NCBI GenBank assembly: GCA_951406725.2
Contig: OX597837.1
Coordinates: 6,200,001 to 6,264,000, forward strand
Length of the DNA: 64,000 nucleotides
Source of the DNA: Octopus vulgaris
Taxonomy: Eukaryota
Direction: 5' to 3'
The translations under genes were made by a program, and so were the position numbers. Shown in pieces: positions 4,447 to 63,861 of the stretch (position 1 is its first letter; each line of letters begins with the position of its first letter). The notes under the pieces were generated by a model, which saw only the letters and a program-made list of their open reading frames with translations, made no database searches and had not been told where the DNA came from.

Positions 4447-4850
4447 TTATCTTTCGTCTTTTATCTTTTGCATGTTACCGTCACTGGACTGCAACCATAC
4501 TGGAGCACTTGAAGAAATATTAGTCGAAGGAATGAACCTCAACCTTATTTTTCTTTCAGCGTAGGGCTTGTTCTATCAAGCCTTTTGGCCCAACCGCTAA
4601 GTTATGCGAACATAAATACATCAATACCGGTTGTCAAGCGGTCGTGGAGGACAAAAATAGACACAAACACACACACACAAATGCACACACACACACACGA
4701 CAGCCTTCTCTCAGTTTCCGTTAACCAAATCTACTCACAAGGTTTTGGTCTGCTCGTGGCAATAATGTAAGACACTTGCTGAGAGTGTCACGCAGAGGAA
4801 CTGAACCCGGAACCAGGTAGTTTGGAAACAAGCTTCATACCAAACAGCTA
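4447..4850 (-). mobile_element. tRNA-derived SINE family A, degenerate
   Basis: Similar to the full copy at 36438-36858, including the internal (CA)n. Confidence 0.7.
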
Positions 4851-5685
4851 CGTGTGTTTCAAATTACGAAATGTCGTGTTCAATTTACAGCTGAAGTAAA
4901 AAATGAAACTAAAGTTACTTGAAAATAGTTTTACATCGTCCCTTAAATGCCGATGGCGATGAATAAGACTTTGAATGTTGCGCTTCTGCAGATGATTGAA
5001 ATACGAGAGAAAGGAAACCCGTTTGACCAATAACTCAATTCAGGATAAGGGTAGAAATTTTGAGAGGAGAAGCTACGCCGCAACGTTATTTCCACTATCT
5101 AGTCGAGGTTCTATTTTATCAAGCCTGAAATAAAAAAATAAAAAAATGCACTTGATCTCAGTGTGTTTCGAACTCAAAATGTAAAGCGTCGGAAGAAAGA
5201 GCACATGGGTACTCAGGTCCCTCCCGGTGATTCCACCGACGCTTCACCTTCTGTTTCGCCAATGAAATACGTATTGTATGTAAAATAAGAAGCGGAATGT
5301 ATCAGAAATAGTCAAAAAATAAATTTAATTCGAATTTTGTCTCCTTTGAAGCGAATGTAACAAAACTGTCGATGACATCTTTTCCTCTTCGCGGGTAAGT
5401 TAGAATCTTGATTTGTGTTGTAACTTTACGCAGACATTTGTTGAGGCTGGTATTTGACAGTTTGACTTCAGCTTTATCGTAGTAACTCGATTGTCTCAGG
5501 GTCTTGTTGCAATCTGCTTTGCTGAACATGATGAGTGACCAACTCTCTGTGTATTCTCTGACATTCCAAACTATCAAGTCATTCCTTCCTCTCCGATTGG
5601 TAGCAAGTCTTAAATTCAAAATTATATATATATTTTTTAATTTTCTCTGGAGAAAAAGATGTGTCTGTAATGATCTGAGGACCAC

Positions 5686-6112
5686 CTAAACAGGTGAAAT
5701 TGACGTGGTTAATACACTTCTTGAACAGTTGAAATCTGACGGCTGCAGGAAAGACGTGTGCAGGTAAAGATTTCCAGAGAGCCAAATTTTTAGGCAGAAC
5801 CGTTTGAGTATAGGGGTTGACGCAGAGTTTGGAGGGGTGAATAAGGCATGAGGAACGAGAAGAGAAATTAGAGAGTCGGGTGTACGTGACGGCATGTGGT
5901 ACGAGACCAGTAAGTTCATTAGAGAAGAGGCCATTGTAGTAACGGTAGAAGAGAAAGAGGGAGGACACAGCACGCTTGTGGGCCAGAGGCTGGAGTGTAT
6001 TAAAAAGCAATTTTATACTTATGAGTCGTGTGGCCTTCTTTTGAATGGGCCCTAGGATTTTTCTATGTATAGCCGCAGTTGCATCATCCCAAATATGGCA
6101 GTAGTACTCCAT
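5686..6112 (-). pseudogene. CR1-group (Zenon-like) LINE ORF2 C-terminal fragment
   Basis: MEYYCHIW...IQKKATRLI...LQPLAHKRAVSSLFLFYRYYNGLFSNEL matches the post-RT region of CR1-group elements. Confidence 0.75.
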
Positions 6113-7128
6113 TGCAATATTGTAATATTAATTCTTCACTTAACTGTACGAATTCTTTACTTAAGTTCTCTCTGCAAAAGATTGGTTGTAGCTGGAACAT
6201 AAAATACTTTTTGAAACGTACGAAGGACTTCTGAGAATCTTCTCCATCATCCAAATTCTTTGTCTTTCTCGAAATTACGATGGCTGATAAAAGAAATAGT
6301 TATTTAAATTAATGTCAGGAATATTATCATATTTTCTGGAAATCTAGTAGGAAATTTCGAAGTGACGTAAGCAAGTTTGTTATGACGAAAGAGAGAGGTT
6401 TTGTTTTACATATACATCTACTTGATTTCTTGAATATCCACCATTACGTCACAATTTATGGGGAGGGAGGAAACTGGTGTGATATGCTGTAATATCGAAC
6501 ATTTGATAAAATAATTCTAGGATAGGGTGGTGGTTACGTCGGTAACTTTTGTATTATTTGGAAAAAGCAACAGAAAATACGGCGTAATTGCCGTGCGGAT
6601 TGGAGTGTCCGACGTTTCGGGGGAAAATCATTCGTCTGGGTAAAGATTACAAGAGACAAATGAAAGCAAGTCAGGAGATTTTACAAATTCTATGTTTGAG
6701 AAACTGGCTGCAATTGGCGCTTCATACGTTCTTTAAATGAAACATGGTATTTAAACAAGCAGACGTCTTTGTGAGACATCAATTAGCGCTAATTGACGTA
6801 TTCCTCAATAGCTATATTAAAAATATTAACAAGTGGAAGATAAGGGCTAAAGACAGTCTGTTGGTGGTCGATCAACTTGATATCAACAGCAATTAACACA
6901 TCTTCAAATCACATCATATCATTAACTGGTTGAGCCCTGCCGTTGCTGAAAGGAGACATTCACTAATATAGCTTTATTTCCAATATGTCTGAATGAAAGT
7001 TGACGATCGTTAGAGCGAGAAAACTTTTCATTAAAAGGTGAATTGAATAAAATAGTTTGATTTCATAATACTATTGATATCCATTATCACATTCAGTGCA
7101 TTACGTGTATTTCTATTTATTTATTCTA

Positions 7129-10327: not shown

Positions 10328-10340
10328 TAAATTATGTGAC

Positions 10341-10458
10341 GCTTACAGAACCTAGGTTTCCTAATCGGTCACCCATCTAAGTACTCACTAGGCTCGACGT
10401 TGCTTAACTTCGGTGATCGGACGAGAACCGGTGCTTTCAACCTGATATGGCCGTGAGC
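10341..10458 (-). rRNA. Full-length divergent 5S rRNA copy (variant gene, pseudogene or SINE head)
   Basis: Minus strand GCTCACGGCCATATCAGGTTGAAAGCACCGGTTCTCGTCCGATCACCGAAGTTAAGCAACG...GATGGGTGACC...CTGTAAGC, 118 nt. No oligo-T terminator follows. Confidence 0.85.
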
Positions 10459-21104: not shown

Positions 21105-21298
21105 CTGGTGTCCTCGTGTGTACCATTGGCGATTTTTCCCCCCTCTGTCTTCCCTTCTCTGGATCTTTCCTTCTCCTATGTTTCCGACGAAGAGCTCCTC
21201 TCGAAATGTAAAACCCTCCTTCTTCCCTTCGTTCTTGACCATCTAATAATACTATATTTGTTCCACGTGCCTGCGTTGTTGTGTTTTCATGTTTGGAT

Positions 21299-21303
<5 letters not shown>
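21105..21303 (+). mobile_element. Family H5 copy with hammerhead motif
   Basis: GTTT-CCGACGA-AGAG CTCCT CTC-GAAA-TG-TA-AAAC at 21180-21214. Ends at GGATTAAC-(TA)n, like the 15031 copy. Confidence 0.62.
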
Positions 21304-21432: not shown

Positions 21433-21633
21433 CCGCAGTAAGCACATAAATGTGAATCAAGGTGGAAAAAAAGAGTACTCAAATACCAGAGGTAGTGTAA
21501 TATGCTTTACTTAAAAGCAGCAGAAATATAACAAAAGCCGTTACTCTTAGTTTCACGTTCCCATCCGTAGGAGGAACGGGAGCGCGAAACTCTAAGTAAC
21601 AGCTTTTGTTATATTTCTGCTGCTTTTAAATAA
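21433..21633. mobile_element. Family H2 fold-back copy (older)
   Basis: Co-linear with 1104-1312, same left end next to (TA)n, inversion at the ribozyme core. Confidence 0.72.
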
Positions 21634-22025
21634 CGTATATATAAATATATATGTATGTATATATTTATGGCCATATATATTATCTTCCTTATATATCGTC
21701 CTATATTTAATTATCATCAAATGTCTTTTTATCTTTTGTCACTAAATCAGCTGCTCTACTTCCCTACTTAATCTTTTTACCTATAGGCTATAAGGCGGTC
21801 TATCATCATTTGTTTTTAGTATTAGATTACGTCTGTCTTTAAAAACATTTCTATATCTTGTATTATTCTGTGTTTCACTTCAACTTTAATTATATTTCTA
21901 TTAGATTAATTTTTTTAACTCTGTGTATACGCATTGTTACTGTAGGCACACACATATATACATTCTTAACTGCACCCATACATACAAATATATATATATG
22001 TATGTATTTATATATATATGTATAT

Positions 22026-22100
<75 letters not shown>

Positions 22101-22103
<3 letters not shown>

Positions 22104-22531
22104 ATAATAACAAAGAGTGAAATTAATTAATTACGAAGTAATCATTAATTTCACCAAGTAGAATTCAGCATGTAAAGGACCAATTCATGGTAAGTTAAGT
22201 AATACTAAATAATTAGGGATCAGCAAACGATTTGCCTCACCACATATGGTTGAAGAATCCTACGCTGATGAGGAAAAATAGTCAGGTAAGGTATAATTAT
22301 TTATTATTTGTGCTCTATTCTGACTTAATTCCGAAACGGGCGTCCGTAGGCAACTTATTATAGAATGATGTTCGGCATTTTTTCCCCTTCTACTTGCGTG
22401 GTTTGCTTTTGAGTGCTTCGGTTTCTCTTGGATCTCCCTTTAAAGTAGAAAGAATAGCCAAGATTTTGACTGCTATTTCTAAACTTCAGTATGTGGTGGA
22501 GCAAATCGTTTGCTGATCCCTAATTATTTAG
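22101..22531. mobile_element. Hammerhead element family H6 with partial inverted repeat, in (TA)n
   Basis: Inverted repeat 22205-22246 / 22490-22531 with (TA)n flanks. Confidence 0.72.
22259..22350 (+). ncRNA. Type I hammerhead ribozyme motif with canonical core and GUC site (H6)
   Basis: Stem I CCTACG/CGTAGG; CTGATGA 22265-22271; stem II GGAA/TTCC extended by AGTCAG/CTGACT; GAAA 22333-22336; C-GGGC-G; TC, predicted cut after 22344. Confidence 0.82.
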
Positions 22532-23014
22532 AATATATATATATATATATATGTAAATTGAGATAGGGGTTGTGAGTGCAACCCTCCATGGGATAACATA
22601 TATAACCAATATACTGCCAGTACAGCACCCAACAAAATTAATACATAAATGTTAAGAACTGCGATGCAATTAATTCATTTATTGTATTATATGGGCAAAA
22701 GTAAAATGTTTTACCGCTAATTAATAATACAAAATAAGAAAATGGAGAAATACACCTTAATCAATGATCGACTACCAGATAATACCCAATCACATAATTT
22801 ATTAACCCACTACATATTAACATCAAGGTCAAACATAATAGTATAGAACAAAAGAATGCACATCAATGAGTAATATGATACAATAAGTACAATATGTATA
22901 AGTGAATATAAATAAATATAAATATAAATATAAACATATTTTGAAGAACTCTCTCTTTGTCAGACATAGGTTCCGCACAACTTGACAAAGTACGATTCGA
23001 AGTACTCCGAGGCA

Positions 23015-23185
23015 CCCCTCGACTTACCATTATCTGCCCTCGACCGGACAGAAATAAGAGACTGCACAAATTGGTTCACTGTTCGGTGATCTCTTCCCAG
23101 TAATTTTGATATTTCTATAGTTTTTCCTTTTCCAAGCTCTGGCACGATGGTAGACTTCTCATTCGAGGTAAGATCCCATTTAAAT
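23015..23185 (-). pseudogene. Tc1-like transposase N-terminal HTH remnant
   Basis: DLTSNEKSTIVPELGKGKTIEISKLLGRDHRTVNQFV...RSRADNGKSR. Confidence 0.6.
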
Positions 23186-23528
23186 TGGGCCCCTGCCTAA
23201 TAATCCGGGACAGCAGAATTGTTGCTGCTACACATTATGGCCGCCGTTTGTTCTCGTCTGCGCAGATCCGATTTATTTTAACTGAATATGCGCAGATCGG
23301 TGGTGCCAACAGTCAGTGGGAAAAGAACTGGTTTCGGATGAGTATACATTTATTTATTGAGAGAAGATTGGTTTGTCCAACAATGTAAAAGGCAGTGTAT
23401 ATATAGTATATATAGAGATAGATCGATAGATAGAGATATATACATATTTATGTATACATATACCTATATGCTAAGCATATTGTTCAATATCATAATGATA
23501 CAGCTAGCTAGTAATTATATTTTTTTTT

Positions 23529-25932: not shown

Positions 25933-26482
25933 TTGGGTTGTCCGGAAAGTTCGTGCCGATTTTTAAAGGAAAGACAAAGGTCAATAAATACTTGCCATTA
26001 CATTTTTAATCAACCAATTATGAACCATTTTCATGCACAATGAGTCTCCATCTTTCCTTTAACTTGAAAATACCCTCTTCCCAGAATTGAGGTGGTTTCA
26101 TGGCAAAGAATTCATCAAGGTATCTTTTTACGTCATCCAAGGAATTGAAATTTTTACCATTAAGACTATTCTGAAGAGACCTGAATAAGTGGAAATCCGA
26201 AGGAGCAATATCTGGTGAATAAGGAGGGTGGGGTAAAACATCCCAGCCGAGCTGCAGCAATTTTTGTTTGGTTCCCAAAGCATCAAGTGCCGAAAATGAA
26301 CTTTCTTATCTTCCATTTTAAAGGGTTACAAAATTAACACAGTTATAGTATAAACCTTCTTCCATGAAAAGATAGCATAAATGGAGGTGAAGTCAAATCC
26401 TATTTTATGGACTCAACCACGTTATAAAATAAACCGGAGGGTAAACTACTATAAATCGGCACGAATTTTCCGGACAACCAAA
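25933..26482 (-). mobile_element. Internally deleted mariner element
   Basis: TIRs TTGGGTTGTCCGGAAAGTTCGTGCCGATTT at both ends with TA flanks. N-terminus MEDKKVHFRHLMLWE is fused to a C-terminus with [16 protein letters not shown]. Confidence 0.92.
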
Positions 26483-61366: not shown

Positions 61367-63861
61367 TGTTTCTTTATTAGCCACACAGGGCTGCACACAG
61401 ATAGAACAAATTACAAGGTAGAGCTTTTCTTTTGGAGGTAAAAAAAAAAAAAGGAGGGGTGTTCGATCAAAAGGGATTGTAAAAGGAGAGAAAGAGGACA
61501 AAAAAAAGGGTGGTTAAAAAAAGGGGGAGAGGAAAAAAATTGATCAATAGGGATCGTTATCACAGAAATGTCAATATGAAGTGTAAAGGGGAGGACAGGT
61601 GAGGTTTACCCGTGGAAAGAAAAGCCTACGGAAAAGACCACGGTAACCTCGGTCAATGAAGTCACATGTTATATTTCTTTCTTTTATTTTATTGTTTTTT
61701 GCAAATAAGCAACTCTCTGTATTAATTTTTATGGTTCATAGAATCATAGTCAAGGTGGCTTCGTCATTCATACGTGCCATCCTTGCTACATTCACCCATC
61801 TTTTTTTAAAACATTCACTAGACAAAACTTGCCTCTCTACTCTCACTTTCCTCCTCAAGTGATACTTGAAGAAGTTGATGAGAGATTGACCAGAGAGGAA
61901 AGTGTTTGTCTCTAATCCTTTCAGGCGCGTCCACCAGATACATTCTTTCGCCATAGCCACAAGTATGATAAAAATAGCTCTTCCTTCCCGTTTGAAGGAA
62001 GGAGGCGTGACGATATTAACGATAGACTCGGCTGATAAACCGACACGTCCCACAAGTGACAGCAGTCGTTCGACATAAGCCCACAGGTGGGAAATTGCTG
62101 GACACTGCACAATTGCGTGCAGAGCGGTTTCGTCGCTCTGCCCGCATCTCGGGCAGGTCGGCCCCGTGTTTCTCGAGCCATGCCTATAGAGCTTATCCCG
62201 AACGGGTAGCGCTTCTCGGTAGCACCGCCAGGCCAGGGATCTCTGGAAGTTGTCCATAGGTGCCGGGCCGAAAGTCGTTTGAAACAGGCGGGTCAGGTAT
62301 TCCTCGTCGACGCCCAGGTTTGCCCCGAGATCGTCGTCGTACCTCCCCTCCACTAATCCCCTATAGAATGCTTTGGTTGTGTTGAAGTCACTCAAGGTCG
62401 ACCCGGGACGGCAGAGTTGCTTGAGAGCAACGCGACACTCGCGGTGCCATTCGCCCTTCCTCGGCCTCTTTTTGATCCACGACTGCAGTTCGGTCATGGA
62501 GACAAGTTGCGGGAATGCGTGCCTCACAAACGGCGACCACACCTGTTCACCGTCGTCTACATAGAGCCGGAGATGTCGCAGTCTCAGCGCGTGTCTGCGC
62601 ATCATCAACCACGGCATGCCCAGCCCTCCTTTTAACGGGTGTTGACAGCAAATGGATCGCCTGACCATCGGGACGCATCCTTTCCACAAGAAGCGGAAGA
62701 GGATGCGTTCTAGTTTGGTGATGGTAGGGTCGGGACAAGGTACGACGGTCAGGCGGTAGTAGATGATGGACGCGATGTACGCGTTCGCCACCTCCGCCCG
62801 ACCTTTTAGGGACAGTTTCCTCTCGGCCCATTGCTGGGCGAGAGTGACCACCCTACTCGTTATCTCGTTCCAGTTCTTCTCCATTTGGAGGTCCGGACCG
62901 AACCAGACCCCGAGCAACACAACCGGGCCGTCTGTCCAGCGTCCCACGACGGAGGTACTGGTGGACGGCATGGGCTTGCTTCTCCAGGTGCCGAGCCGCA
63001 AGCCCACTGACTTTTCCCGGTTGATTTTTGCTCCTGTCACCGCTTCGTAGTCTTTCAGTGTCTCGCCGACCCGCTCGATGTGCTCGTGGCTTGACACTAT
63101 GACGGTGACGTCGTCCGCGTATGCAGACACGCTCGTCCCGCATCCCAATTCTCGTGGGATGCCCCTCAGAGTCGCCAGCTTCCGCAGTAGTGGCTCAAGA
63201 GTCAATACGTATAGAAGCGCCGAGAGGGGGCATCCCTGATGGACCGAACGTGCAATGTCGAAAGGTCTCGATAGATGTCCATTCACGCGAATTACCGAAC
63301 GGATGCCTCTGTACAAGGCAGCTATCCAGCCGCGGAAGACGGGACCGAAACCAGCCGCTCTCAGGACTGCCTTCAAGTATCGATGGTCTACCCTATCGAA
63401 GGCTTTCGATTGATCCAAGTTGATCAGGGCCCCACCCATGCCAGGTTCGTTAACTACCCTGTCTATGATGTAGCGCATCAGATGGAGGTTGTCATGGATG
63501 CTCCGGCCCGGCACGGCGCACGTTTGTGCGTTGTCGACCAGTTTCTCGATGACAAGCGCCAACCTTTGTCAAAATTTTTAGGTCTGCATTGAGCAGAGTG
63601 ATTGGTCTAAAGTTATCTATAATGTTCCCCTTGTTTGGATCTTTCTTCAGCAGTGTTACAGCTCCTCGACTCACAAAACTGGGTATGCTCTCGTTTTGCT
63701 GCCAGTTGCAGCATACTGCTGCCAAGACGTCTCCAAACAAGTCTGGCATACAATTGTAAAACTCGTAGGGTAGACCATCCAAACCCGGTGATTTGTCCCT
63801 CGAGCATTCTGCTATCGCTTCCTGCACTTCCGCCGCCGTAATGGCACCTTCGCAGCACCCT
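61367..63861 (-). mobile_element. 5'-truncated Tx1-like (L1 group) LINE inserted in (GATA)n
   Basis: GC-rich 2.5 kb block with an RT ORF and 3' UTR. (GATA)n directly abuts both ends. Confidence 0.92.
61736..63860 (-). pseudogene. LINE ORF2 reverse transcriptase, truncated and frameshifted near 63565
   Basis: KSPGLDGLP, NFRPITLLNAD, LDQSKAFDRV, QGCPLS, YADD and a C-terminal CPRC..H...C knuckle. The endonuclease domain is absent. Confidence 0.93.

Follow-up and report, generated by a model that had tools for sequence, protein, structure and literature searches.

The window analysed here is the whole 64,000-nucleotide stretch of Octopus vulgaris DNA (assembly GCA_951406725.2, contig OX597837.1, positions 6,200,001 to 6,264,000, forward strand). 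Between two (TA)n microsatellites it holds a short element made of two oppositely oriented pieces of one repeat unit, with a type I hammerhead ribozyme motif in the longer piece (Table 1). No frame of at least 70 aa lies within 22131–22862, and none overlaps the element beyond the edge of the TA run. Elsewhere in the window there is a 610-aa open frame at 61738–63568 (−), which we take to resemble a LINE reverse transcriptase, and short frames at 22960–23196 (−) and 26018–26305 (−) that presumably resemble pieces of Tc1/mariner transposase.

Table 1. Parts of the hammerhead-bearing element and its flanks, in window positions
Feature	Positions	Strand	Remarks
(TA)n microsatellite, left target flank	21988..22101	.	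Sequence
Inverted arm, ~145 nt of unit 3′ region	22102..22246	−	Unit ~460 to 599+4
Left arm of apparent inverted repeat	22203..22246	−	Unit ~460–502, in inverted arm
Forward arm, 5′-truncated, ~287 nt	22247..22533	+	Unit ~213–502 of 599-nt unit
Type I hammerhead motif	22259..22350	+	Sequence, fold, motif scan, alignment A1; predicted cleavage after C22344
Helix I, 6 bp	22259..22264 / 22345..22350	+	CCTACG / CGTAGG; sequence and type I scan
Hammerhead core box	22265..22271	+	CTGATGA
Helix II, 4 bp	22272..22275 / 22329..22332	+	GGAA / TTCC, then internal loop and extension
A-run with one extra A	22274..22278	+	Helix II internal loop; in 0/70 other copies
Helix II extension	22280..22285 / 22320..22325	+	AGTCAG / CTGACT
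GAAA box	22333..22336	+	Core boxes 61 nt apart
Private G	22339	+	Other copies C or T
C of GTC triplet	22344	+	Helix III, 2 bp closing GGGC
Conserved 3′ box, 18 nt, superfamily-wide	22466..22483	+	4392 exact matches in genome
Right arm of apparent inverted repeat	22490..22533	+	Unit ~460–502, end of forward arm
(TA)n microsatellite, right target flank	about 22534..22552	.	Sequence

The motif has the C3UGANGA9, G12AAA and U16.1-H17 elements with helices I to III and is open at helix I, as a type I hammerhead is. A strict-criteria type I scan of both strands gave one match in the 64-kb window and a mean of 0.0 in 60 block-shuffled windows. The segment 22250–22360 folded with z = −2.66 and with helices I and II formed, equal stability being reached in 2 of 200 shuffles. 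An earlier sequence-only reading had described a hammerhead with a canonical core, a 6-bp stem I, a 2-bp stem III and a GUC site, flanked by (TA)n; each of these is present. It had also singled out the length of stem II, which is indeed long, although a long helix II and a 2-bp helix III turn out to be traits of the whole family and not special to this copy.

Rfam at gathering score reported no hammerhead over the window; its sole match was a 5S rRNA at 10340–10458 (−), scoring 95.4 bits and present in one copy. Other hammerhead-like matches in the window are both short and minimal (core at 21184 on the + strand; 1211–1240 on the − strand). The former, a U4C variant at 21177–21300 (+), ends another abundant repeat where that repeat enters (TA)n; the repeat gave 25 BLAST matches among the fetched loci. 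By eye, a decayed hammerhead look-alike can also be seen at ~21530–21630, within a long hairpin repeat left of the element, and the flank with this hairpin repeat gave 16 BLAST matches.

The first 145 nt of 22102–22533 match the same loci as the rest, but their match is to the other strand and follows immediately on the forward one. The left part is therefore an inverted copy of the unit 3′ region. This inverted arm stops at a long ‘tail’ end and the forward arm at a short fixed end, each abutting (TA)n. The two arms overlap in unit positions, and the overlapping parts are 41/44 identical. The 42-bp inverted repeat noticed earlier is thus real, but it is no element boundary; it is the overlap of two insertion arms. 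The locus is an insertion scar of two arms, the inverted repeat does not mark its termini, and what was inserted is a partial monomer carrying one hammerhead. There is no second piece of the 599-nt family in the 64-kb window, which leaves the copy without a tandem partner.

A repeat flanked by TA also invites reading as a MITE, with 42-bp terminal inverted repeats, a TA target and a hammerhead by chance. However, 100 nt separate the left repeat from the left end, the overlap length varies by locus, single-arm copies occur without any inverted repeat, and units form direct tandems. Fixed terminal inverted repeats at both ends were not found, and we rejected the MITE reading as having next to no chance of being right.

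A search of the 2.8-Gb genome with 22102–22533 gave 2232 first-look candidates; the closest copies among the 40 scored were 92–95% identical over 22245–22531. The hammerhead 3′ half has 154 exact genome matches (control 0), with same-strand pairs 597–601 nt apart, and one locus (L050) is a natural dimer with a period of 599. The 599-nt family thus forms head-to-tail units of 597–601 nt, in which no long reading frame was found. Every unit of the tandem repeat holds a type I hammerhead and codes for no protein, so that by these sequence traits the family is a non-LTR retrozyme. The 18-nt 3′ box lies 120 nt past the cut site; its exact matches (control 0) fall at periods of 584–594 nt, and the 30 box loci inspected are subfamilies of one design. 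The superfamily accordingly has units of 560–599 nt, with sister families of 560–594 nt, and thousands of copies, many in head-to-tail arrays in which units directly adjoin units. GC content is 33–36%. Units folded as circles gave predicted z values of −4.3 and −5.7 against 25 shuffles.

Units of the 560-nt sister family (L144–L155, e.g. G000:C6:6073450-6080590) are 94–96% identical and form arrays of up to ~12 units; they have a short helix II and a GUU cleavage triplet, and the family is younger than the 599-nt family. A 589–591-nt subfamily (L140, L151) with a CCGAUGA core (U4C) has been amplified as multi-unit arrays. A pattern for short-helix-II relatives gave 14 matches, with L070, L083 and L077 in the superfamily and no ORF linked. 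A pattern for long-helix-II hammerheads gave 2387 (control 13); two of the 10 loci inspected are in the superfamily and none has a linked ORF. The latter pattern requires a palindrome, and its matches are no evidence for one.

For the 594-nt sister unit, sequence contigs cover 30/30 bins and head-to-tail joints appear in 4/4 runs; the RNA origin of these runs is a guess, and such a joint would also arise from tandem DNA, so we read them as a weak hint of expression at family level only. At the focal stretch the guessed-RNA contigs cover chiefly the box and tail, and uncovered parts prove nothing.

We mapped the insertion ends at 69 loci and dropped eight as repeats of the same insertion, which left 61 distinct loci. 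Divergent pairs of arms occur at 30/61; 27 of these have one short and one tail end, none has two alike, and three have one end elsewhere. Single arms occur at 29/61 (22 with the short end, six with the tail end, one other), where the short end is inflated, the first 30 loci having come from a query that ended at it. Other layouts make up 2/61. The short end lies near unit 502 and the tail end near 599–11, so that the two fixed points are about 100 nt apart, ~193 and 290–300 nt after the cut site in the 599-nt retrozyme. Ends usually abut (TA)n.

The same ends bound the arrays. Eleven of 14 fetched arrays, chosen by hand from match lists, are two-armed, and in every one of these one end lies 63–75 nt and the other 162–166 nt after the box, while the inner ends are ragged. 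In 38 units from 10 arrays of the 560-nt family, units differed by 2.8 substitutions when on the same strand, by 3.1 when on opposite strands and by 9.8 when taken from different arrays. Array-private variants were found on both arms in 3/4 two-strand arrays tested.

These insertions show the inverted 5′-truncated arm, the tail at one end only and the (TA)n target of Penelope-like elements (PLEs). Published work is cited throughout from excerpts. PMC8557442 describes PLEs with inverted 5′-truncated copies, a 30–40-bp tail at one end only and (TA)n targets. PMC11167929 describes a PLE protein that cuts and extends both strands, with two RT start points that bound the tail, and also a hammerhead that cut only with protein. 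Because the end pattern matches these traits, we infer that twin priming took place on a single RNA, either multimeric or circular.

The arrays could instead be satellite-like: single PLE-type insertions would have needed no circular or multimeric RNA template and would later have grown by unequal crossing over, as has been proposed for vertebrate retrozymes (bioRxiv 2026.07.22.740005). Both models predict that units within an array will be highly similar. The likeness of opposite-strand arms, which equals that of same-strand units and extends to private variants held in common, and the two fixed points of the outer ends beside ragged inner ends, argue against later expansion, which we regard as very improbable. 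We therefore keep to arrays made at insertion.

The helices were examined in an alignment, A1, of 71 copies (69 distinct rows). In it 94% of cells are paired, and there are 41 double changes compared with 6.4 in shuffles (0/500 had as many), a control that ignores kinship. Most helix I and II pairs are invariant within the family. The clearest signal is the centre of helix III, where pair 97–98 is CG in 27 distinct rows, UA in 24, UG in 15 and something else in three. A hand count of the first 100 of the 154 3′-half matches gave 55 GTAC, 22 GCGC, 18 GTGC and five others. Across the superfamily, helix III is self-complementary in 73/77 distinct hammerheads. The helix I sequence differs between subfamilies in these 77 motifs and is mostly still paired; among relatives helices I and II are swapped between subfamilies as in compensatory change, and N7 varies freely. 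Self-complementarity of helix III, the metazoan form, points to dimeric cleavage with two ribozymes pairing, which is how such palindromes are explained in PMC4209133.

The family has this self-complementary form and the focal copy has lost it. Position 22339 is G here, T in 40 other copies and C in 30, and the focal 18-mer that includes it (ACGGGCGT) occurs once in the genome. G22339 breaks the helix III palindrome and would give two G.G mismatches in a dimer; the predicted self-duplex is −3.3 kcal/mol, compared with −13.3, −9.8 and −8.8 for three common variants. A canonical core with intact helices is present in 35/71 copies and the palindrome too in 32/71, and these 32 sampled copies have a better-formed hammerhead than the focal one. 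The predicted probability of focal helix III pairing is 0.000 after rounding (rank 52 of 64 copies) and that of helix I is 0.69 (rank 42 of 64). The focal copy is accordingly predicted to self-cut worse than its relatives. The earlier reading had made it the most likely competent ribozyme in the window. It does have the best-formed motif there, but with G22339 and no tandem partner the case for special competence is not supported. For the same two reasons a tandem dimer of the focal copy would be a poor cleavage test unless a family-type copy ran alongside.

Could the focal copy nonetheless be an active monomer, cutting a host or read-through transcript at 22344? Its core is intact and helices I and II are perfect. 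Position 22339 would sit in the loop of a monomer helix III, where it need not harm monomer folding, and the internal loops after the 6-bp helix I and the 4-bp helix II would fall at the canonical positions for tertiary contacts. Retrozyme monomers from coral cleave at ~0.8 per min and those from mussel at ~0.1 per min (PMC7229834). Against this stand the predicted helix probabilities just given and a palindrome whose selection in the family implies dimer use, lost here. Monomers cleave less readily when helix III has 2 bp (PMC4209133), and eight of nine Xenopus retrozyme dimers showed no cleavage (bioRxiv 2026.07.22.740005). The copy also differs only by private changes of unpaired type, as in neutral decay. 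We consider an active monomer at this locus improbable and a cellular role for its hammerhead more so; weak cleavage in vitro is possible, if on the doubtful side.

We conclude with good confidence that the focal locus is a truncated, two-armed and privately mutated non-LTR retrozyme copy, likely inserted into (TA)n by a PLE-type reverse transcriptase/endonuclease and likely now inert. Array transcripts would self-cleave, neighbouring hammerheads pairing their palindromic helix III as a dimer, and would free monomers that are likely circularised. A PLE protein may then bind the region of the 3′ box and tail and nick both (TA)n strands. Judging by the ends, reverse transcription would start at two fixed points ~100 nt apart, and both arms would be copied from a single template, each extending back over it by a differing length, to join head to head. 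The focal arms are ~145 and ~287 nt, so that one hammerhead was copied, and it gained its private changes later. Such a copy is unable to release a monomer; as RNA it could make at best one cut, probably slowly.

Circle and linear multimer templates are indistinguishable from insertion data. We nevertheless lean towards a fuller reading, in which hundreds to thousands of superfamily insertions record twin-primed rolling reverse transcription: a PLE-type enzyme would start at two fixed points on one circular ribozyme RNA, copy it repeatedly onto both strands at a nicked (TA)n, and so yield ready-made back-to-back arrays. The 3′ box and the 100-nt tail would then be the minimal cis signal, and the box a candidate recognition site of the helper enzyme. 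The palindromic hammerhead with its long helix II would point to a Hydra-like helper. Two features count against insertion by a PLE. The ~100-nt tail exceeds the 30–40 bp of PMC8557442, and the end spacings of sampled PLEs are ~150 nt (Hydra-like) and ~57 nt (1311-aa family, by eye), not 100 nt.

The focal locus by itself carries little weight: it has decayed, thousands of other copies exist, and it would serve a cleavage assay poorly. At family level, the insertion ends are genomic evidence in favour of the proposed mobilisation of animal retrozymes by PLE enzymes, and they argue for arrays made at insertion and not by later expansion. They also single out a small region in cis, along with young dimers, as testable in the existing PLE in vitro system. 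For assays of cleavage and of circles, the 560-nt sister arrays (L144–L155) are the most suitable.

Metazoan non-LTR retrozymes have been described with units of 170–400 nt (Cervera and de la Pena 2020, PMC7229834) and of 51–972 bp with a PLE origin (Li, Clavereau and Pollet 2026, bioRxiv 10.64898/2026.07.22.740005). Ours share with them the non-coding head-to-tail repeats, the low GC, a single type I hammerhead in each unit, the many copies that are solo or truncated, strong predicted circle folds and co-occurring autonomous PLEs. They differ in that the 560–599-nt units exceed the earlier size range, while falling within the later one, and in a helix II that greatly exceeds the canonical 4 bp and loop. 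Circular RNA and cleavage have been demonstrated there, whereas ours are known from genome sequence. The excerpts of these two papers hold no description of two-armed insertions with two fixed ends such as those found here. No publication on such elements from this animal group came to light, although the repeat library of PMC13282606 and File S2 of PMC8557442 may hold them; the excerpted main text of PMC13282606 makes no mention of ribozyme, hammerhead or retrozyme.

PLEs with pLTR hammerheads (PMC4209133; PMC8557442; Poseidon PAc, PMC11167929) resemble our elements in their partial tandems, inverted 5′-truncated arm, tail at one end only, AT-rich or (TA)n targets and short palindromic helix III suited to a dimer. 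The 599-nt unit is unlike them in lacking an RT or GIY-YIG frame and in its longer tail; its core is complete and canonical and its helix I has 6 bp, where theirs is a minimal hammerhead.

The genome contains three young PLE families with intact frames, of 781, 899 and ~1311 aa. The 899-aa family (L242, L249, L252, L257–L273, e.g. G000:C1:119513500-119522500) has a tandem period of ~3.6 kb and many intact frames. It shows the RW, DKT, CxxC and CxH motifs of the Hydra clade, while the CxCx5C pattern is unmatched. Like Hydra-clade PLEs (PMC8557442), this family (L242, L252) shares with our superfamily (TA)n targets, two fixed ends and a hammerhead with a long helix II (insert ~50–60 nt) and an 8-nt palindromic helix III. 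Its ends lie 48–70 and 200–228 nt after the cut site, unlike those of the 599-nt retrozyme. Profile searches found no homology between the retrozyme and Hydra-like 3′ regions (best E 5.1). The family is a lead to the clade of the helper and not an identification.

No 3′ box or tail shared with an autonomous PLE was found among sampled loci L158–L273, and the three young families were rejected as a helper sharing the 3′ region of the unit. A weak GIY-YIG match beside L007/L008 (E 0.0049) was below cut-off and unlinked and was set aside.

One may also ask whether the focal element is a pLTR remnant of an unsampled autonomous PLE and belongs to no separate non-autonomous family. All its insertion marks are PLE marks, the Hydra-like autonomous elements carry hammerheads built alike, and the PLE searches each scored only about 150 of 4600–6700 candidates. 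Yet array units directly adjoin, and the 594-nt arrays have no stop-free frame of 130 codons with mixed composition. No RT plus GIY-YIG ORF between pLTRs was found in the 599-nt unit, the 594-nt arrays or the focal locus. A hammerhead pair 2945 nt apart on C4 was tried as an ORF-bearing element and proved to be a local duplication with no ORF between. The lack of 3′ homology to Hydra-like elements also speaks against a remnant, and retrozyme pieces beside PLE ORFs were, where inspected, separate or nested insertions. We hold a remnant to be very unlikely and retain a non-autonomous retrozyme family.

An apparent excess of retrozyme pieces beside Hydra-like loci was likewise rejected as linkage, the five loci inspected in full being separate or nested insertions. 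At L265 (5185–5700) a 560-type retrozyme abuts the short end of a Hydra-like element with no (TA)n between them, for which a nested insertion is the simplest account. In the 781-aa family (L188–L190, G000:C17:42762000-42768000) the RT/GIY-YIG frame is preceded by a 360–380-aa frame, and a minimal hammerhead with a U3-A8 core variant can be seen by eye near the 3′ end. Insertions of the ~1311-aa family (L243–L247, G000:C9:33145500-33152500) are themselves two-armed.
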